A stretch of 11,334 nt of DNA from a virus (Duplodnaviria; Heunggongvirae; Uroviricota; Caudoviricetes): the IMG/VR virus record IMGVR_UViG_2551306674_000009. One strand, given 5' to 3'. Both the position numbers and the translations under genes were made by a program. This document shows, in pieces, positions 1,497 to 11,334 of the stretch (the first letter of the stretch is position 1; every line of letters starts with the position of its first letter). The notes under the pieces were generated by a model. The model saw nothing but the letters and a program-made list of their open reading frames with translations, was not told where the DNA came from and made no database searches.

Positions 1497-1530
1497 TGTG
1501 CCCCCATCGCTCTGATAGTCTGGTGTCGTC

Positions 1531-1735
1531 GGGTCCTTCCTGGAATTATGGCCCGTTACGGGGCGGCGACCTCGCGGATTTTATCTGTTTATGAAAATTT
1601 TCTGGCAAAAGTCAGATCCGTTCTTCTTCTCTGTAACAGATTGTTTAACAATGAAAACATTAAAAAAAGAAAGGATCTGACACGAGGCATTTTAGCCAGA
1701 AAATGCCATTATCAGATCCTTTCTCATTTTTGTTC
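1531..1735 (+). other. Lambda-type cos site (cosQ-like, cosN 1561-1572, cosB with three R-like elements)
   Basis: Exact lambda cohesive-end 12-mer GGGCGGCGACCT at 1561-1572, followed by cgcggattttatctgtttatgaaaatttt (compare lambda CGCGGGTTTTCGCTATTTATGAAAATTTT); R-like elements at 1614-1626 (+), 1667-1686 (inverted) and 1714-1725 (+), core cAGATCC(g/t)TTCT. Confidence 0.75.
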
Positions 1736-1751
1736 AATAATTGCGCTGCGG

Positions 1752-2294
1752 TTACTCACGTTTCTTCTGTAGCAACTTTTCCGGTACGTTTCCGGTTGTT
1801 TCGGCCAGGTAATCAGCCAGTATCTGCGGAAGGTTGTCGGCAACTCTGGCACTGGCATTACAGGCTTTAACCACTTCCCTTTTAAGCCCATCCAGCATGG
1901 CGGGGGTAATCTGTGGGAAGCTCCTTTGCATCGTAAGCGGTAGGCTGTCCATGATTGAAGAAATCTGACTCGCCAGTTTTGAAAGCGCGTACATGCAAAA
2001 CTCTGTATCAATTACGTCACCGCGATCGCGCTCGTTTTTAAGTTCCTGCGCCTCCGCCTGGGCGGTCAGTAATCTGATCCTGACTCGTAAGAGTTCATCA
2101 TCATCAATCTCGCCTTTGTCGTTTGTAACCTGGTTAATTACATTGCTTACCCGATTGTCTATCACGCTGGCAACATCGTAAAAAGCCTCGCGTCCTTTAC
2201 GTTCAACGGGAGTCACTCCCCACTTGTCGAACGCTGTCGCACTTACACGGCAGCTTTTCGCCATGTTTTTTTTGTTCATCAGGTGCGATTTCAT
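1752..2294 (-). CDS. terS: Terminase small subunit, lambda Nu1-like
   Basis: C-terminal two thirds align closely with lambda Nu1 (LTAQAEAQELKNERDRGDVIDTEFCMYALSKLASQISSIMDSLPLTMQRSFP vs LTRAQADAQELKNARDSAEVVETAFCTFVLSRIAGEIASILDGLPLSVQRRFP); N-terminal DNA-binding region diverged. Start set at the second ATG (MKSHL) because it has a GGGGA SD; the ORF track begins 12 nt upstream at 2306. Confidence 0.85.
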   Translation of the reverse strand: MKSHLMNKKNMAKSCRVSATAFDKWGVTPVERKGREAFYDVASVIDNRVSNVINQVTNDKGEIDDDELLRVRIRLLTAQAEAQELKNERDRGDVIDTEFCMYALSKLASQISSIMDSLPLTMQRSFPQITPAMLDGLKREVVKACNASARVADNLPQILADYLAETTGNVPEKLLQKKRE

Positions 2295-2423
2295 CAATAT
2301 CCCCACTTAAGTAATGTTTCAGGTTGGTGTATTGGTTTTATCTTTCCCTTTTTATTCATAGAGATAGAGCGAACAACAAAACCACCACCAGCACCCGAAA
2401 AAGGCTCATAAATAGTGAAAACG

Positions 2424-2470
2424 CGCGAGGTCGCCGCCCCGTAACGGGTCCATATGCCGGAAAGGACCCG
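2424..2470 (-). other. Second cosN-containing repeat (cosQ-like + cosN + start of cosB), inverted relative to 1531-1577
   Basis: Reverse complement of GGGCGGCGACCT at 2428-2439; on the minus strand reads cgggtcctttccggcatatggacccgttacg|GGGCGGCGACCT|CGCGCGTTTTCACTATTTATGA, closely matching the remembered lambda right-end/left-end junction. No R-like elements between it and terS. Confidence 0.7.
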
Positions 2471-2494
2471 TAAAAAAAGCCGGATTTCTCCGGC
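2471..2494 (-). terminator. Rho-independent terminator after the head operon
   Basis: Minus strand: gccggagaaatccggc followed by TTTTTTT, directly after the stop of the 137-aa gene. Confidence 0.7.
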
Positions 2495-2499
2495 CTGTC

Positions 2500-2925: not shown

Positions 2926-3261
2926 TTATCGCGCCAGCGGCTGAACGGATACGCCAGAACCAGCAAAGGCGGCGCATTTTTTCGCGTCAGTGTCGGCGCT
3001 TTCAGGCCAGTTTACGGCGGCGATATTAAATATCCCCGTCTTGTAACACTGTGCTGATTTCTGCGTCGACGTGTCCACGGGGTACGAGGTCAGATAAACA
3101 GCCTTGCCAGATTCCTGACCATCCCACGCCTTAAACTCGCCATTGTCCGCCAGCATCAGCGGGGTAAATTCCTGAATAACGCCAGCATCAGCGGCAAAAT
3201 GTACCAGCGTCGTGGATACCTGCTGGCTGCCTGCAAATAACTCAATGTATGGAGTGTCCAT
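2926..3261 (-). CDS. Head decoration protein, lambda gpD-like
   Basis: 111 aa; aligns with lambda gpD (TPLMLADNGEFKAWDG vs TPLMLDTSSRKLVAWDG; KKCAAFAGSGVSV vs KRTAFAGTAISIV); GGGGG SD. Confidence 0.85.
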   Translation of the reverse strand: MDTPYIELFAGSQQVSTTLVHFAADAGVIQEFTPLMLADNGEFKAWDGQESGKAVYLTSYPVDTSTQKSAQCYKTGIFNIAAVNWPESADTDAKKCAAFAGSGVSVQPLAR

Positions 3262-3272
3262 AGAATCCCCCG

Positions 3273-4328
3273 TTAAGCAATTTTGACAGTAACAAATTTG
3301 CGAATATCTGCCGGAACCGGCTGCGGTGCGCTGTGCGTCTGCACGTACTCAATCGCCGGATCGCCGTCCTCAATCCAGTTTTTCGGGTAGTACATGTTTT
3401 GCGTTGCCTTCGTTCTTACTGCGTCCTGATCCATAATCGCACCATAGGCCACCAGCCCTTTATTGTTGGTGTTGCCCAGGACCAGCAAATCAGGTTCAAG
3501 GAAATATTTTTCTGTGCCGTCGCTGTCGGCGTATTTGCCGGAATAGACGATAAGGGCAATATCGCCCAGATAGCCTTTAAAGCTCACCACTTCGCCCAGG
3601 TTTTTACAGGCCAGTTCGGCGGCGGATTCTGAACCACGGGAAAGATCGTACAGCTCACGGAATTTTTTAAAGCTGCGTAACGTGCGCCATACCTCAGCGC
3701 CCATAATCATGACGTTTGCGGGGCAACCAGCCTGATCAGCATAAAGCTCGATGTCATAGATTGGATCGTGCATCTCTTTATCCTGCTCGGACCATTTTTT
3801 ACCCTTGGCCTGCTCTATGATGCAGTTTTCCGGTATTTTCCAGTCTATTTCATAGCGTTCTATGCCTTCGCCCTCAATAATGTTTTTTCCGGTCGTTATC
3901 GCATTCACCGCCAGCCATTCCACGCGCGCTTTAATGGCGTTTACCTGGCGGCGCATGTTGCCAGTAATCAGGCGCATACGTCGGTAGGTAGGGTCGTTAA
4001 GCTGTGCCGGATCTTCTCCAGCCATGCGCATGATGGTTTTTGTTGGATCGATTTCGTGCTTTGGCTTCATGTAGCCAGGTTTAATCGTGCTGGTTTCGTA
4101 TCCTTTATCGCGCTGTACCTGGCTGCCAACCATAGGCGAACAAAACGCCGACATGGTGACTTCTTCAATGTCCAGGGTATCCAGCATGATGTTTTGGGTG
4201 CTGAATGTCGCCACGTTCGGGAAAAACAGCGTGATAAACAGCGGACTGAATTTAAATTCCGCAATATCCCCGCGATTCAGGTACGCAAAAAGCTGGTTAG
4301 TGTTAAGTGCCGTTGCTTTGCCTGCCAT
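3273..4328 (-). CDS. Major capsid protein, lambda gpE-like
   Basis: 351 aa; conserved blocks versus lambda gpE (FKFSPLF, PGYMKPKHEIDP, DPTYRRMRLI, YPKNWIEDGDPAIEY...SAP). Confidence 0.9.
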   Translation of the reverse strand: MAGKATALNTNQLFAYLNRGDIAEFKFSPLFITLFFPNVATFSTQNIMLDTLDIEEVTMSAFCSPMVGSQVQRDKGYETSTIKPGYMKPKHEIDPTKTIMRMAGEDPAQLNDPTYRRMRLITGNMRRQVNAIKARVEWLAVNAITTGKNIIEGEGIERYEIDWKIPENCIIEQAKGKKWSEQDKEMHDPIYDIELYADQAGCPANVMIMGAEVWRTLRSFKKFRELYDLSRGSESAAELACKNLGEVVSFKGYLGDIALIVYSGKYADSDGTEKYFLEPDLLVLGNTNNKGLVAYGAIMDQDAVRTKATQNMYYPKNWIEDGDPAIEYVQTHSAPQPVPADIRKFVTVKIA

Positions 4329-4534
4329 TATTCACCCCCATAATTTTTATGCATCCCAAGCGCCGCAAGTAAATAAGAGCGCACAAGTGAACCTATCGAC
4401 GGCTCCGGCGTCATCAGCGGATCCAGTCCAGCCGCTACGCCAGCCTCATAGTTTTTTTTGTGGCGCTGCTTGAGCACCTCCACGATTTCGGGGCTTATGT
4501 ACACCGAAACACCGCCTTTTTTCTCTTCTGCCAT
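4328..4534 (-). CDS. Small protein (68 aa), first gene of the head operon
   Basis: Stop overlaps the capsid start (TAATG); AGAGGA SD; beta-strand/helix pattern (VSVYISPEIVEVLKQ) could be RHH-like. Function unknown. Confidence 0.5.
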   Translation of the reverse strand: MAEEKKGGVSVYISPEIVEVLKQRHKKNYEAGVAAGLDPLMTPEPSIGSLVRSYLLAALGMHKNYGGE

Positions 4535-4567
4535 AGTCAGAAATTCCTCTTTGACTTAAAAAATCAC

Positions 4568-4618
4568 AACTGGATGTTCATCCAGTTATGATTATAATCA
4601 TGATTGCATTTTGCGCAA
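4568..4618 (-). promoter_or_regulatory. Head-operon promoter with SOS-box-like operator
   Basis: Minus strand -35 TTGCGC (4613-4618), 16-bp spacer, -10 TATAAT (4591-4596); palindrome aACTGGATGAACATCCAGTt (4568-4587) just downstream of the -10 has the CTG-N10-CAG LexA-box geometry. Confidence 0.45.
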
Positions 4619-4696
4619 TAAAATTGAGTTGTGTTGCAAATTATGAAATGGTTTACAGCAACAGTAGTCACCATGCTGTTAACCTCGTAAGCAAAA

Positions 4697-4735
4697 GCCC
4701 GATAAGCTTCCTCCTGTACTTATCGGGCTTTTTTT
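4697..4735 (+). terminator. Rho-independent terminator (plus strand; weak on minus)
   Basis: gcccgataag-N12-cttatcgggc followed by TTTTTTT on the plus strand. Confidence 0.6.
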
Positions 4736-4741
4736 GGGCGC

Positions 4742-4763
4742 AAAAAAGCCGGATTGCTCCGGC
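4742..4763 (-). terminator. Rho-independent terminator after the 74-aa gene
   Basis: Minus strand: gccggagcaatccggc followed by TTTTTT; same sequence family as the terminators at 2471-2494 and 5105-5128. Confidence 0.7.
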
Positions 4764-4783
4764 TATGTGTGCTGTGTGCTGGC

Positions 4784-5008
4784 TCAGTCTCTGATCTCTT
4801 TCAGAAATTCTATCAATGCATCTATCTGTTCAGGATTTACCGCCAGCATTTCACCGGATAGAGCACATCTCACAAAACCATGCTGATCCTTTTCAATCAG
4901 TGCGCCCGTCTCCAGGAATGCGCGGTAATCATTGATGCTCATCGTCTCCATGTTGTCAGCATGGTATTTATCACGCTGTTTTAATATCTCATCAAATTTC
5001 ATCGGCAT
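4784..5008 (-). CDS. Hypothetical protein (74 aa), stand-alone moron-like gene
   Basis: AGGAAA SD; terminator upstream (5105-5128) and downstream (4742-4763), so apparently its own transcription unit between the replication and head modules. Confidence 0.55.
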   Translation of the reverse strand: MPMKFDEILKQRDKYHADNMETMSINDYRAFLETGALIEKDQHGFVRCALSGEMLAVNPEQIDALIEFLKEIRD

Positions 5009-5104
5009 TGTTTTTTTCCTCTGTTGTGTCTGTTTGTTTCAGATAGTAACTATGCCTGACCGTGACGAAAACCCGGTAATGCGCCATACCGTTTCAACTG
5101 GTGC

Positions 5105-5128
5105 AATAAAAGCCGGATTTCTCCGGCT
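5105..5128 (-). terminator. Rho-independent terminator ending the replication/regulatory operon
   Basis: Minus strand: agccggagaaatccggct followed by TTTTATT, directly after the PerC-like gene stop. Confidence 0.65.
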
Positions 5129-5134
5129 GTTTGA

Positions 5135-5407
5135 TTAGCTGTCCTGGTAATTGCGCCATATTTCATCACCAGCACCATCTATACCCATTTCGGCATAAGT
5201 GCGATCGACTGCCTTTTTCAGGTCTCCGAAATTATCCGGCGGCTCCGGTGCCCTCTGTGCCTTCCTTGAACATTCCAGCCGTCGCATCGTGATGTGATGC
5301 CGTTCCTTGTCTGTCTCCACCAGCTGCATGACTTCACCCCATCGCGCCGCCGCCCTCCGGTAAAAGCCTTTCGCCTCCAGTTCCTCCGCTATGCGGTCAT
5401 GTACCAT
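5135..5407 (-). CDS. PerC-family transcriptional regulator-like protein
   Basis: Motif AEELEAKGFYRRAAARWGEVM resembles the PerC/Pch signature as I recall it; start placed at the internal ATG (MVHDRI) with a GAGGGGG SD rather than the longer ORF-track start at 5527. Confidence 0.55.
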   Translation of the reverse strand: MVHDRIAEELEAKGFYRRAAARWGEVMQLVETDKERHHITMRRLECSRKAQRAPEPPDNFGDLKKAVDRTYAEMGIDGAGDEIWRNYQDS

Positions 5408-5417
5408 CGTCACCCCC

Positions 5418-5713
5418 TCAGAACGAAATATCATCACCGTAAGGGTCATCGCCTCCCGCTGGTGGCTGATTACCCTGTGTGCCTGTGGTTTTGCGTCTGT
5501 TCCCGCCAGGACGGGCAGCACGGGCACTGATTACACTGTCTGCGATAACCTGCCAGCCCTGCCGCGTTTCGCCGTTCTGGCCTGTCCGTCCTGTGCCTGG
5601 CTGCATGGCAAAGATACCGCCATACGCGCCAGCGTCATCGGTGTGCCCTTGCTGGTCTGTTTTACCTGCGGGTCGTCCACCAGCCGCCCGTAAGCGGCTA
5701 TCTGTGCTGTCAT
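5418..5713 (-). pseudogene. SSB-like remnant spanning two reading frames
   Basis: Frame from 5713: MTAQIAAYGRLVDDPQVKQTSKGTPMTLARMAVSL (SSB N-terminus-like); a second frame ending at 5418 is Gly/Gln-rich and ends DDPYGDDISF (SSB acidic tail-like). Start overlaps the upstream stop (ATGA) and the second frame ends 10 nt before the next gene. About 98 codons in total, too short for a full OB fold. Confidence 0.35.
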
Positions 5714-5961
5714 GATTCCACCTCTCCGGTTTTAACGTTGATGGTTGTTACCTGTTCCGCTTCGGCAATCTCCCGTTCTGTCAGCGTGGCAAAGTTTGCC
5801 GCCGCCGTGGTCATGAATGCGCTTATCAGGTCGGGATGTTCCTTCGCGTATCCTTCCCGCGTGTGGCGGTCTATCGTTCTGATTGCCACCTTTAAGGTGT
5901 GCTCAGTCATGTCTAACGCTTTATATTTTGGCTCTGTTCTGTCTCTGCGTTTTTGGGTCAT
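5710..5961 (-). CDS. Hypothetical protein (~83 aa)
   Basis: First ATG with GAGAGG SD at 5961 (ORF-track start at 5991 is GTG and lies inside the iterons); stop overlaps the SSB-like start. Confidence 0.45.
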   Translation of the reverse strand: MTQKRRDRTEPKYKALDMTEHTLKVAIRTIDRHTREGYAKEHPDLISAFMTTAAANFATLTEREIAEAEQVTTINVKTGEVES

Positions 5962-5969
5962 TTCTCGCA

Positions 5970-6165
5970 ACCTCTCACTTTTTCGCCTCACTTTTTCAAG
6001 CGTCTCACTTCGTCGCAGTTGGGATTTTCGGTTTTTCTATGTGTGTGTTTCATAAGTATTTTTTTACCCCTCACTTTTGAGGATGTATACAGGTCGAAAA
6101 GTGAGGGAGAGCGGGCTAATTTTGGCCCTCTTTCTATCCCCCTCGCTTTTGCTCCTCACTTTTAT
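5970..6165. repeat. Putative replication origin: CTCACTTTT iterons flanking an AT-rich stretch
   Basis: Copies at 5974-5982, 5987-5995, 6004-6010 (degenerate), 6070-6078, 6097-6105 (inverted), 6142-6150 (degenerate), 6155-6163; AT-rich 6020-6068; immediately 3' of the rep gene. Confidence 0.65.
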
Positions 6166-7562
6166 AGCGGCGCTACATCATCCCCATCGATACGAATAAC
6201 CCCATCTTTTTCCAGCTTGTACAGCCAGCGCCGGAAGTTTTTCATTTCATACCCCAGCTTTTTCATGTCATCACGTAACAGCGGGATCGTGCACTTGTCG
6301 CCGTTCTGTGTGCGTGAACGGATGCACCCCCATAGCGCGGTATGGTTTTCCGTCTTGTTCCCTGCCTCCTCGATGCGCTCCAGTTCAACAGGAGGGCGCG
6401 GATCATCCACCACCACCAGCGACGTGATTAATTCACCGTCAGCGTCGGTAAAAAGCTCCACCACGCGTAAGTCATATGCGGCTTCTTTGAGTTCCTCCGC
6501 GTCCTTCATTTTGGTGCATGAGATAACCAGCGCTTCGCTTCCTGCGTCCTCCCTGCGTATCCGGTATTCAGCATCCAGCGAAGCACGAAATGCACTGGAA
6601 CCGCGCGCGCCTTTCGTCTCATCCTTGCCGGAATGGTGAACCACCAGCACCGTGGCCCCTGTGCGTCGTTTCAGTTCGTCACAACCACGGATAAACGCCC
6701 CCATATCACGGGAATCATTTTCATCATTCCCACCAAAGCAACGCGCCAGCGTATCCAGAATAATCATGCGTACAGGTTTACCCGTTTCCCGCTCCACCTG
6801 ACGGGCAGCGATAACCATTTCATCAACATCAAGCGGGGCAGCCGGAAAGATGGGGCGGTTTACCAGATACAGATTTTTCACCTGCTCATCGTGCACAACC
6901 TCCCAGGCTTTTACACGACGCGGAACACCTATACCGCCTTCACCAACCACATAGAGAACCGCACCATGTGCAACCCTGCGGCCTCCCCACTGGCGACCAG
7001 TGGCAACATGGCACGCCCACGATCCGGCAAGGAATGATTTATAGGACCCGCTAGCCCCGTATATGCTGCATAGCGATACCGCCGGAATAATCCCCTTAAC
7101 CACGTAATCCAGTTGCGTGTCGTATCCGGTAGATCCAACGCTCATCGGTAGCGTGGTTTTTCGCTGGTGGTTTTTTTCTTCCGCCGGCTCTTTCCCGCGC
7201 ACCCGTTCCAGGTATTCGCGCCAGTTCTCCCGCATATGGCTGTGCATCCCTTCGGGGTAATAATTCGCATCAGTTACACCCGCCGCCGCCAGCTTGTGCG
7301 CAATGGCATTAATATTTGATGGCCTGATGTGGCCTGCCTTGTACAGCCGGACACAATAGCGCCCCTCGTCGATGATTCTCAGGTCTGCCAGTTCATCCAG
7401 TTGATCATCAGCCAGCACAACGGGAGGCACATTATCGCCAGCCAGTCGCCCGTCCTGTTCCTGCCACTGTTTCGCATGTGCCCAGGCATCACTACCCGCA
7501 AAAATAATGACTTCGGTCATCTTGTCGTAAGGCTGTTTTTTTAAGTTCGGTGCGCTTTTCAT
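6162..7562 (-). CDS. Replication initiator/helicase, RepA-like (AAA_25-type RecA-fold ATPase)
   Basis: 466 aa; Walker A GASGSYKS, Walker B-like MIILDTLARCF, VLVVHHSGKD; C-terminal winged-helix-like region; ATGA overlap with the upstream ORF. Confidence 0.8.
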   Translation of the reverse strand: MKSAPNLKKQPYDKMTEVIIFAGSDAWAHAKQWQEQDGRLAGDNVPPVVLADDQLDELADLRIIDEGRYCVRLYKAGHIRPSNINAIAHKLAAAGVTDANYYPEGMHSHMRENWREYLERVRGKEPAEEKNHQRKTTLPMSVGSTGYDTQLDYVVKGIIPAVSLCSIYGASGSYKSFLAGSWACHVATGRQWGGRRVAHGAVLYVVGEGGIGVPRRVKAWEVVHDEQVKNLYLVNRPIFPAAPLDVDEMVIAARQVERETGKPVRMIILDTLARCFGGNDENDSRDMGAFIRGCDELKRRTGATVLVVHHSGKDETKGARGSSAFRASLDAEYRIRREDAGSEALVISCTKMKDAEELKEAAYDLRVVELFTDADGELITSLVVVDDPRPPVELERIEEAGNKTENHTALWGCIRSRTQNGDKCTIPLLRDDMKKLGYEMKNFRRWLYKLEKDGVIRIDGDDVAPL

Positions 7563-10095: not shown

Positions 10096-11334
10096 TCAAG
10101 AATTTTGAGAGTAAATTCGCGGGGTCATAACAACGATTTTTTCATCATTGTTCTGGAGAAGCTCGAGACGCTCAACCCATAGATTAAGAGCGTCACGTTT
10201 TGCATCGAGATAACGGGAGTGATTATAGACTCGTTGCATTCCTGGCAACTGGTGCGCGGTTAGCTGCTCCACTACATGAGGATCCACGCCTAAATCGTTC
10301 AGCATCGTTGTAAACGTGTGCCGGATGTCGTGCAACGTCCAGGGGGCTTGATTAATACGTCTGTGTGCCGTTCTTCCGTACTCTGATACGGATGATTGCC
10401 CTTTCAGTTCTCCGAGCAATAATCCCGTGTGCCTGTTCTGCTCCACCAGCTTCGTTACGAACGGCAAGATCGCTTCCGGTATTGGCCTGAATATTGCTAC
10501 CTTCGTTTTGCTGTGTTCTTTCGGCACGGTCCAGAGCATTTCTTTAAAATCCCATTCCTGGAGCTCAGAGCGTCTTAGCTCAGTGGTACGACATCCGAAG
10601 ACAATCAGGAGGCGAATCAGGGCGCTGTAGTACGGTGGGTAAATTTTTTCATCCAGGGCGCGGAGTAATTCCCCAAGCTCCTTGTTTGTTAGTACGCGCT
10701 CGCTTATTTCTGCTTTTTTCCCAACATCACCTACAACCATATCATCTAGAACGTTGGTAATTGCGTAGCGTCGTTTGCGGCAGTACTTAAGCGCCTGCTT
10801 GCATACCTGTAACAAAAATCCTGCTGATACCGGATTACGCTTAGCAAGCTGATCAAAACAGGTCAGCCAGTGGCGTAGCTCGCATTTTTCCAGCGGCATA
10901 GCACCAATCTGGCTGATTATGTGTGTATTGATCCGGCTCTTCAGAGATTCGTAGTCTGTGCGCTTTTCCTTCGCGTACGATTCAAGCCAGTAAGTGAGCG
11001 CTTCCTTAACCGTAACAGGTGATAACGCTTCCTGTACGGTGTGATTAAGCTCATGGCGTGGATTTTTCCCCTCAGCAAGCCAGGCGCGACACTGCGCCGC
11101 TTTTTCCCTGGCTGCTTTCAGGCTCAAATCAGGATAATTTCCCAGCCTCAGACGTTCAGGGGATACCTTCCTGCCTGTTCCGGCCCTGTAAGTGAAATAC
11201 CAGGTTAACAGGCCATTGGTTGAATGCCTTACGCTAAGGTTGCCACCATCATTAAAAAAGGTGTTTTTTGTGGTTGGTGATCCGCTTAATTTTCGTAAAA
11301 GAGTGTCGCTAAGTCTATGAATTGCCCTGCTCAT
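10096..11334 (-). CDS. int: Tyrosine integrase, P4-type
   Basis: 412 aa; N-terminal arm-binding-like region, C-terminal catalytic residues (HDIRHTF ... VYNHSRY). Start codon is at the last bases of the window, so the true 5' end could lie beyond the edge. Confidence 0.85.
   Translation of the reverse strand: MSRAIHRLSDTLLRKLSGSPTTKNTFFNDGGNLSVRHSTNGLLTWYFTYRAGTGRKVSPERLRLGNYPDLSLKAAREKAAQCRAWLAEGKNPRHELNHTVQEALSPVTVKEALTYWLESYAKEKRTDYESLKSRINTHIISQIGAMPLEKCELRHWLTCFDQLAKRNPVSAGFLLQVCKQALKYCRKRRYAITNVLDDMVVGDVGKKAEISERVLTNKELGELLRALDEKIYPPYYSALIRLLIVFGCRTTELRRSELQEWDFKEMLWTVPKEHSKTKVAIFRPIPEAILPFVTKLVEQNRHTGLLLGELKGQSSVSEYGRTAHRRINQAPWTLHDIRHTFTTMLNDLGVDPHVVEQLTAHQLPGMQRVYNHSRYLDAKRDALNLWVERLELLQNNDEKIVVMTPRIYSQNS

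Follow-up and report, generated by a model that had tools for sequence, protein, structure and literature searches.

An inverted pair of lambda-type cos sites around terS in an EcCICFT073-family island, and packaging cassettes found in both orientations

Why would a mobile element carry two lambda-type cos sites in opposite orientations, one on either side of a small terminase gene? This question is raised by an 11,334-bp stretch of viral DNA (IMG/VR record IMGVR_UViG_2551306674_000009; hereafter the window, to whose positions all coordinates refer unless a locus is named), in which the lambda cosN 12-mer GGGCGGCGACCT occurs on both sides of terS, a gene for a Nu1-family small terminase, with the right copy and terS on the minus strand. 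By gene order, flank identity and the attachment site of a relative, the window belongs to the EcCICFT073 family of phage-inducible chromosomal islands (PICIs) from Escherichia coli. We consider it probable that the two copies are complete packaging sites with different cosB specificities and opposed directions, serving different helper classes, and that the segment between them flips by recombination.

The cos pair and its published counterpart

The 12-mer GGGCGGCGACCT is present exactly twice, at 1561-1572 (plus strand) and 2428-2439 (minus strand), flanking terS as an earlier, sequence-only reading of this DNA had placed it. These two positions remained the only matches when up to two mismatches were allowed, and the exact 12-mer was absent from 200 of 200 dinucleotide-preserving shuffles of the window. 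Chance or an assembly artefact was rejected as the origin of the pair, since these 12-mer statistics, its conservation in hundreds of complete genomes and alignments that run in a single piece over both junctions all speak against it. A repeat search assigned each copy to one arm of an inverted repeat, the left arm (1530-1601) containing cosQ, cosN and the start of I2 and the right arm (2399-2470) being its partner. The arms are 72 nt long and 79% complementary, and they share a perfectly identical core of ~24-26 bp (CCGTTACG-GGGCGGCGACCT-CGCG); the imperfect inverted repeat with cosQ-side sequence that had been noticed here is thus real, but the length of ~47 bp given to it was too short.

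As lambda reference we used the cos junction from both ends of the lambda genome, compared without gaps with both window copies. The left and the right copy each match lambda cosN at 12 of 12 positions, the cosQ heptamer GGGTCCT (lambda register; 1531-1537, plus strand, for the left cos and 2463-2469, minus strand, for the right cos) begins 30 nt before cosN in both, as in lambda, and over I2 (+12 to +45) the identity with lambda is 82-85%. The alignment to lambda cos, which had been proposed as a check, therefore finds both 12-mers to be cosN within a full cos context, and two opposed sites ~870 bp apart are, as had been pointed out, unlike the lambda arrangement. No site with the exact IHF consensus occurs in the left or in the right arm.

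Such a pair is less unusual than it had been taken to be, since an inverted pair around rppA has already been published, as cos1 and cos2, for EcCICFT073, the prototype of cos-type PICIs in Gram-negative hosts; the inverted two-cos layout is known, and it has been genetically tested in that island. Two cosN sequences were described in EcCICFT073 (Fillol-Salom et al. 2018, ISME J, PMC6092414), and cloned cos1 or cos2 each suffices for plasmid transfer by lambda and phi80, while transfer of the island itself is lowered by deletion of cos1, raised by deletion of cos2 (lambda, phi80) and abolished by the double deletion (PMC6092414). The Rpp protein binds the helper TerS, and the complex recognises the cosB of cos1 (Fillol-Salom et al. 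2019, Mol Cell, PMC6739421), which lies just upstream of rppA, with cos2 beyond the rppA 3' end (supplementary Fig. S1A of PMC6739421). According to both papers, no phage cosB is identifiable in EcCICFT073.

In CFT073 (locus L003) we located the GGGCGGCGACCT copies at 15558 (plus strand) and 16297 (minus strand), around rppA, a gene of 144 aa. The outer arm of the window's right copy is 93% identical to that of cos1, and the outer arm of the left copy is 98% identical to that of cos2, the latter figure referring to 60 nt on the cosQ side. Because of this outer-arm homology we equate the right copy with cos1 and the left copy with cos2. Similarity between the window and CFT073 drops to background ~45 bp inside each cosN, and the whole interior is therefore a different cassette.

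A complete TerS and two unlike cosB regions

The gene inside this cassette (1752-2294, minus strand) encodes a protein of 180 aa, counted from the start that RefSeq annotates in relatives. Its earlier naming as terS is confirmed by a score of 82.7 bits against Pfam PF07471 (cut-off 30) and by a full-length match to phrog_57 (E 6e-52, residues 1-176). The N-terminal 55 aa are 61% identical to gp1 of N15, the motif AFDKWGV.PVE included, and only 28-38% identical to the TerS of lambda (Nu1, 38%), of 21-type phages or of PhiR5_1. Over its C-terminal 120 aa the protein shares 60% identity with PhiR5_1 TerS and 41-45% with the remaining TerS proteins compared, in an alignment that reaches the end of the region; in lambda Nu1 the C-terminal region serves oligomerisation and binding of the large terminase. 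On these alignments the island TerS appears to be composite, joining an N15-like DNA-binding domain at its N-terminus to a C-terminal domain like that of PhiR5_1. Searching PDB sequences with TerS returned chance matches only, and none to RppC or to the lambda Nu1 DNA-binding domain.

No RppA homologue was detected in the window island by tblastn, and terS, the gene at the rppA position, is only 16% identical to RppA in alignment. Because Rpp has no large-terminase-binding tail and needs the helper TerS (Murialdo and Feiss 2022, PMC9026076), which a complete TerS would not, we infer that the window island would replace the specificity subunit of the helper instead of modifying the helper TerS. 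A promoter scan of the right arm gave no convincing terS promoter; only the terminator before the right cos is clear, a hairpin with a T-run (2477-2496, minus strand) at the end of the capsid-gene operon.

The right cosN (2428-2439, minus strand), an exact match and the EcCICFT073 cos1 homologue, stands directly beside terS. Its interior (2295-2427, minus strand), consisting of I2 and a candidate island-specific cosB, is highly conserved across TerS cassettes (25 distinct sequences from 36 cassettes of the survey described below) and is unrelated to the Rpp-type cos1 interior beyond +45, while the cosQ-to-cosN stretch of this arm is identical to that of phage PhiR5_1. The right copy had been described as having no R elements. 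Lambda-type R elements are indeed absent, but the interior is not empty: a G/T-rich element, GGTGGTGGTTTTGTTGTT, occupies the R3 position (2372-2389, minus strand; ~bp 51-68 from cosN), and an inverted partial copy, ACACCAACC, is found ~50 bp further on (2322-2330). GGTGGTGGTTTTGTTGTT is kept in nearly all TerS islands examined, with minor variants in L010, L043, L080 and L090, and it resembles the R3 of N15, GAGGTTGTTGTT, located at bp 48-59 (Feiss et al. 2015, PMC4669245). We regard GGTGGTGGTTTTGTTGTT as the candidate binding site of the predicted N15-like winged-helix domain of the island TerS.

The left cosN (1561-1572, plus strand), also an exact match and the EcCICFT073 cos2 homologue, continues, as had been claimed, into a full cosB that lies beyond the terS 3' end and is inverted relative to terS. 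An I2-like segment between cosN and R3 (1573-1611, plus strand; 85% identity to lambda from +12 to +45) is followed by R3 (CAGATCCGTTCTTCTTCT, 1612-1629, plus strand, in ungapped register with lambda R3), by R2, which is inverted relative to R3 (AAAAAGAAAGGATCTGAC, 1664-1681, plus strand), and by R1, a direct repeat of R3 at 92% (TCAGATCCTTTCT, 1712-1724, plus strand). All three lie within 0-2 nt of the lambda positions, and their core is CAGATCC where that of lambda is CGTTTCC.

This cosB has counterparts in phages. The R3 18-mer CAGATCCGTTCTTCTTCT was found in 71 IMG/VR stretches, at least 23 of which are phage contigs that combine lambda cosN and the same R3 with a phage TerS beginning MNVNKKKLADIFGVDVRTITAWQSQG; the TerS of CAGATCC-class phages has a lambda/21-like recognition helix, RTIT[A/G]WQSQG. 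In phage locus L107 the stretch between cosN and R1 matches that of the window at 82% identity and keeps R3, R2 and R1. Since phage contigs share cosN and R3 with the left cos and L107 keeps all R elements, the left cos is, by sequence, a copy of one that an actual class of phages carries, with R elements of the form CAGATCC[G/T]TTCT. Phage SerU-LTIIb, an LT-IIb toxin phage, was rejected as its direct source: at 640-760 of locus L006 it has CAGATCC-type R elements with a very different cosN region, GGGGTCTGGGGACG. Prophages with the SerU-LTIIb cos are present in 38-43 of 5,426 E. coli genomes.

We collected 80 related IMG/VR loci with the 93-aa protein encoded next to the left cos as anchor and classified them together with E. 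coli loci. A cos lies directly upstream of terS in 36 of 36 TerS cassettes; its cosN carries one mismatch in L035, L037 and L038 and is the variant 12-mer GGGCGGCAGACG in L072-L074. At the left-copy position, 10 of the 36 cassettes have no cos. Because the cos upstream of terS is always present and the left-position cos is missing in these 10, the comparison suggests that the right copy, beside terS, is the obligatory, cognate, island-specific site. The sequence-only reading had stressed the left copy as the "full" cos, an emphasis that the comparative data turn round.

Two kinds of locus in this survey deserve separate description. In L043, one of the 10 cassettes, the cosQ side and the first 8-9 cosN bases are fused to the terS stop codon (3925-3975 of that locus), the endpoint of the deletion lying inside cosN. 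In L072-L075 the two sites differ in their cohesive ends, with GGGCGGCAGACG (GGGCGGCTGACG in L075) upstream of terS and GGGCGGGAGCAT near the 93-aa gene, and because of this unlike pair of sequences it appears that two sites of one island can differ in cosN as well as in cosB.

The second lambda-type cos of TerS cassettes has a cosB of the CAGATCC type in 15 cases and of the phage-21 type (CATGTCGGTACT) in 7. Because an identical N-terminal stretch of 75 aa in TerS occurs beside the CAGATCC type in 3 islands, the phage-21 type in 5 and no second cos in 6, the TerS DNA-binding domain does not co-vary with the second cosB among these sequences. Across islands, the left-copy position holds at least four phage cosB types. 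That of EcCICFT073 cos2 (L003 16070-16340), with the R elements CATGTCCGG / CCGGACATG, was published as "completely divergent" and is here matched to real phages: as judged by eye, and with only scattered substitutions, it closely matches the cos of at least 77 IMG/VR phage contigs, among them that of L168 (46.5 kb), in which lambda cosN is combined with another TerS, one that begins VATQTEVARHLSLTDRQLRRLQ. The Rpp island L011 has a three-part cosB with the R3 of N15 at the cos2 position, and L010 has a phage-21-type cosB, like the CFT073 prophage. Rpp cassettes are paired with CATGTCCGG or N15 cosB types and TerS cassettes with CAGATCC or 21 types.

We infer that the cos2 position would hold a modular copy of a helper-class cos, which the TerS of the matching helper would use directly. 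The helper-specific use that had been suggested for the two sites gains indirect support, in that the left cosB matches a phage class and the position swaps at least four phage cosB types independently of TerS. A gene-less cassette of 524 bp also occurs between cos cores; it consists of two phage-type cosBs back to back and a remnant of the rppA 3' end.

Cassettes in both orientations and the readings they allow

Inversion of the terS segment between the repeats had been put forward as a possibility, and flipped cassettes do exist in nature. We searched complete E. coli genomes for the junction predicted for a flip, in which the left flank through cosN is joined to the right-arm interior. For the TerS cassette, 5 complete genomes contained the inverted junction, unbroken in the alignment over its full length, against at least 483 with the forward form. 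In two of the strains, 2014C-4587 and PM4-5, terS runs against the direction of every neighbouring gene, and window positions 1530-2470 map in reverse (97% and 88% identity, respectively) between collinear flanks; the TerS protein of 2014C-4587 has the same accession as that of a non-inverted relative. L009 and L010 are clean inversions with breakpoints between ~-10 and +17 of cosN.

The cassettes of sister islands have flipped too. The RppA/CFT-type cassette is inverted in 15 complete genomes and forward in 68, and annotation confirmed the inverted form in strain WP4-S17-ESBL-08, where it sits at the phoQ site and encodes an RppA with the CFT073 accession. The gene-less 524-bp cassette occurs in opposite orientations in 12 and 3 complete E. 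coli genomes at 99-100% identity, as it does in L013, L014 and L025 versus L023 and L031 (3401-3936). Strain GF4 has both orientations of this cassette at different loci, and strain JNE181771 has one forward and one inverted TerS island. The orientation polymorphism extends to at least four cassette types, which implies at least four independent flips on the sequences at hand.

How the segments turn is indicated by the arms. The interval between ~-10 and +17 contains cosN, so that the breakpoints fit cut-and-rejoin and homologous recombination alike. In L032, L036, L044, L065, L067, L076, L077, L080, L081, L088 and L090, the cosQ-cosN spacers are identical or chimeric between arms (hybrid GGAATTATGGACCCG), and the bases just inside cosN are often homogenised between arms, a pattern that indicates gene conversion between the inverted arms. 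Because the chimeric spacers and the homogenised inner bases put exchange endpoints outside cosN as well, flipping probably proceeds by homologous recombination or gene conversion between the arms and not by precise cut-and-rejoin.

The relative orientation of the cos sites, inversion and a phage counterpart of cos2 are unmentioned in PMC6092414, PMC6739421 and PMC9026076, and partly unspecific searches found nothing published on how PICI cos sites are oriented or on their inversion. Within the literature searched, the replacement of Rpp by TerS in the EcCICFT073 family is new, as are the natural orientation polymorphism of the cassette and the reading of the second cos, that of EcCICFT073 included, as a swappable copy of particular phage cos classes.

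Under the reading that we favour, the right cos would be the primary site, directly upstream of terS as in lambda and N15. The N15-like winged helix of TerS would bind the G/T-rich element at the R3 position of the right cos, the Nu1-type C-terminal domain would recruit the large terminase of the helper, and packaging from the right cos would run towards lower window coordinates. The left cos would be recognised directly by the TerS of a CAGATCC-class helper, from which packaging would go the opposite way, and would so provide a second entry point that widens the helper range. Lambda packaging is polar: it sets out from cosN in the direction of cosB and finishes at cosQ-cosN. Packaging begun at one cos would be truncated by a second in direct orientation, while an inverted cos would be approached from the wrong side and passed over; the inverted layout would make sense because termination at the downstream cos is independent of cosB specificity (PMC4669245), so that a direct second cos would act as a terminator.

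Several points weigh against this reading. The second cos is dispensable, given the 10 TerS cassettes that do without it, and in EcCICFT073 deletion of cos2 raised transfer by lambda and phi80, which makes the second site a cost there (PMC6092414). In the right arm, the R3-position element is only loosely like N15 R3 and is shifted by several bp; neither a remote rR2-like copy of it inside terS nor an exact IHF consensus was found; and since the islands are close relatives, the right arm is conserved as a whole, which singles out no binding element. That a translocating terminase would ignore an inverted cos takes the lambda polarity for its premise, and binding of TerS to the right arm, recruitment of the large terminase and helper use of the left cos are predicted from sequence. 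Finally, the inverted forms may go back to a small number of clonal events: every one of the 15 inverted Rpp cassettes matches the query at 99.3% identity.

The orientation data could also be taken to mean that the inverted pair forms a programmed inversion switch, or else a cassette open to exchange, operated by terminase cleavage and re-ligation or by cleavage-stimulated recombination. Both orientations do occur in at least four cassette types, with the gene-less cassette nearly or fully identical between them, and the islands are mosaic, with a break in similarity within ~45 bp of cosN on each side. A double cut would, from its geometry, leave identical overhangs on the cassette; a flip, or a swap between co-resident islands, would alter terS or rpp expression or the direction of packaging; and the terminator before the right cos implies that terS may have its own promoter inside the cassette. 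We nevertheless think such a switch unlikely. The island encodes no invertase, and the att integrase is the sole recombinase seen in the window and in its annotated relatives. TerS cassettes are seldom inverted (5 of ~488), and the CFT073 assemblies are forward in 4 of 4 cases. Endpoints outside cosN, as revealed by chimeric outer spacers and homogenised inner bases, are those of ordinary homologous recombination and unlike those of cut-and-rejoin. Moreover, both cos sites are complete after a flip, which entails no obvious change of phenotype, and for this reason a flip may be neutral.

We also entertain, with the same reserve, a broader proposal, namely that the cos cores bound a mobile, invertible packaging-specificity cassette whose cosB modules and TerS or Rpp genes would be exchanged among islands and helper phages, with terminase cleavage at cosN stimulating or catalysing the exchange. 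If this were true, PICIs would carry a swappable second key, a helper-class cos copy that sets which phages mobilise them, and EcCICFT073 cos2 would be one of these keys, fitting a phage class outside the helpers tried.

A different assignment of roles, in which the left copy is the working cos, cognate to the island TerS, and the right copy is the decaying remnant of a lambda-like cos-terS junction, appears improbable to us. It could appeal to the recognisable three-part cosB at near-lambda spacing, which only the left copy has, and to the one-base change in the terS-side cosN of L035, L037 and L038. However, the DNA-binding domain of TerS is N15-like, whereas CAGATCC-R phages have the lambda/21-like helix RTIT[A/G]WQSQG, and the same TerS N-terminus goes with a CAGATCC-type, a 21-type or no second cos. 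The left-position cos is the one that can be missing (10 TerS cassettes, as opposed to none for the terS-side cos), the right-type homologue cos1 is the required site in EcCICFT073, and the right copy has intact cosQ, cosN and I2, as lambda-like as those of the left copy.

That the second cos is a functionless, hitch-hiking recombination scar from a helper prophage, its inverted layout without a role, would suit its absence from 10 of 36 TerS cassettes, the L043 remnant truncated inside cosN and the improved transfer of EcCICFT073 by lambda and phi80 after cos2 deletion (PMC6092414), but is very hard to reconcile with intact cosQ, cosN, I2 and three R elements in most islands, with at least four phage-type cosB modules at the same position, which argue for repeated selection of a working site, and with the findings that cloned EcCICFT073 cos2 supports plasmid transfer and that only the double deletion abolishes island transfer (PMC6092414).

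Returning to two complete sites for different helper classes, the consequences would reach beyond this island. In E. coli, PICIs of the cos type disseminate virulence and accessory genes, and it is their packaging specificity that determines by which phages they can be mobilised; the published model accounts for cos1 together with Rpp but has no explanation for cos2. Should the second site be a helper-class cos copy with interchangeable types, helper range could become readable from sequence. A satellite TerS of the Nu1 type would offer this island family another way to redirect packaging, by replacement of the helper's specificity subunit and not by its modification. The natural flips show that short packaging sites also serve as recombination substrates, which bears on the origin of mosaic cos regions and on engineered PICI or cosmid delivery vehicles with two cos sites.

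Island setting and comparison with known systems

The genes around the cassette, all encoded on the minus strand, have the PICI order of integrase, regulator, replication module, capsid-like genes and cos region. They comprise an integrase gene (10096-11334) and genes for a RepA-like helicase (6162-7562), a regulator of the PerC family (5135-5527), a major capsid protein like gpE (3273-4328) and a decoration protein like gpD (2926-3261). The right cos is flanked by a conserved gene of 137 aa (2500-2913; phrog_1999, E 7e-65; phrog_53, E 1.6e-8) and the left cos by the conserved gene of 93 aa (1215-1496; phrog_1561, E 2.6e-57), which is syntenic with CFT073 C_RS07030 and is annotated as "phage head-tail connector protein" in some RefSeq records. 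Window and CFT073 have in common the order integrase, replication genes, PerC, gpE-like, gpD-like, 137-aa gene, cassette and 93-aa gene, and the flanks of the cos region are 90-97% identical to CFT073. The 1.2-kb region around the cos pair is present at a coverage of at least 80% in 483 of 5,426 complete E. coli genomes, and in the best match, a relative at 98% identity, the island lies between roxA and phoQ, the EcCICFT073 site in CFT073. The window integrase has ~79% DNA identity to that of CFT073 and of the closest relative, as compared with 90-98% for the packaging end; because of this difference, the attachment site of the window island probably differs from that of CFT073.

The 137-aa protein aligns with a head maturation protease family, phrog_53, in the C-terminal part of that family (positions 494-567), and may be a scaffold resembling the C-terminal part of Nu3/gpC. 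Because this scaffold-like protein is encoded beside the gpD-like and gpE-like genes, the island may encode a set of capsid protein, decoration protein and scaffold; EcCICFT073 is reportedly packaged in full-size capsids. Homologues of the 93-aa protein (85-99% identical) in L012, L015 and ~27 other IMG/VR loci adjoin large-terminase or other capsid-type genes, in elements that have neither the 137-aa gene nor lambda cosN, and the 93-aa gene thus seems common to different satellite types. In L011 (NZ_CP123335.1), at 4479-6117 of the locus, the Rpp-type island directly adjoins a truncated prophage gpA terminase gene, a setting that looks like the helper-embedded PICI configuration of PMC10111431.

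Compared with known packaging systems, the window departs from lambda in number and placement of its sites: lambda has one cos (cosQ-cosN-I2-R3-I1-R2-R1, then Nu1), with a full cosB before the Nu1 start, whereas the window has two opposed sites, and its full cosB abuts the terS 3' end. With the N15/Monarch group, window TerS shares the type of DNA-binding domain (61% identity, including AFDKWGV), and both N15 and the right cos of the window have a G/T-rich element at the R3 position in a short cosB directly upstream of terS. Overall identity of TerS to N15 is only 45%, however, with a PhiR5_1-like C-terminal domain, and the window cosN is that of lambda and not that of N15, while the sequence at the R3 position is similar to that of N15, but neither identical nor in the same place.

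Mu G, P1 C, Hin and the shufflons are familiar examples of segments that lie between inverted repeats and that natural populations contain in either orientation. The window segment resembles those of the Gin/Hin/Cin type in its inverted-repeat boundaries and its two orientations, which in its case are seen between strains only, but it adjoins no serine or tyrosine invertase, and its repeats are packaging sites. Like the window, pac-type Staphylococcus aureus pathogenicity islands (SaPIs) with their own TerS have a satellite small terminase that redirects the helper large terminase to the satellite, and they too substitute for the helper's specificity subunit instead of altering it; these are Gram-positive systems with headful (pac) packaging and unrelated proteins. 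To our knowledge, no inverted cos pair bracketing terS has been described for SaPIs. Two putative cos sites are, however, also present in SaPIbov4 (PMC6092414).

The closest system remains EcCICFT073, which has in common with the window the island family, the gene order and the inverted pair of exact cosN copies that brackets a packaging-specificity gene. Both of its sites have been shown to function, with cos1 beside the gene required. The window has a full Nu1-family TerS where EcCICFT073 has Rpp, which forms a heterodimer with the helper TerS and has no large-terminase-binding domain. At both sites the cos interiors of the two islands are unrelated beyond ~+45, and the cosB at the cos2 position is of the CAGATCC class in the window and of the CATGTCCGG class in CFT073.

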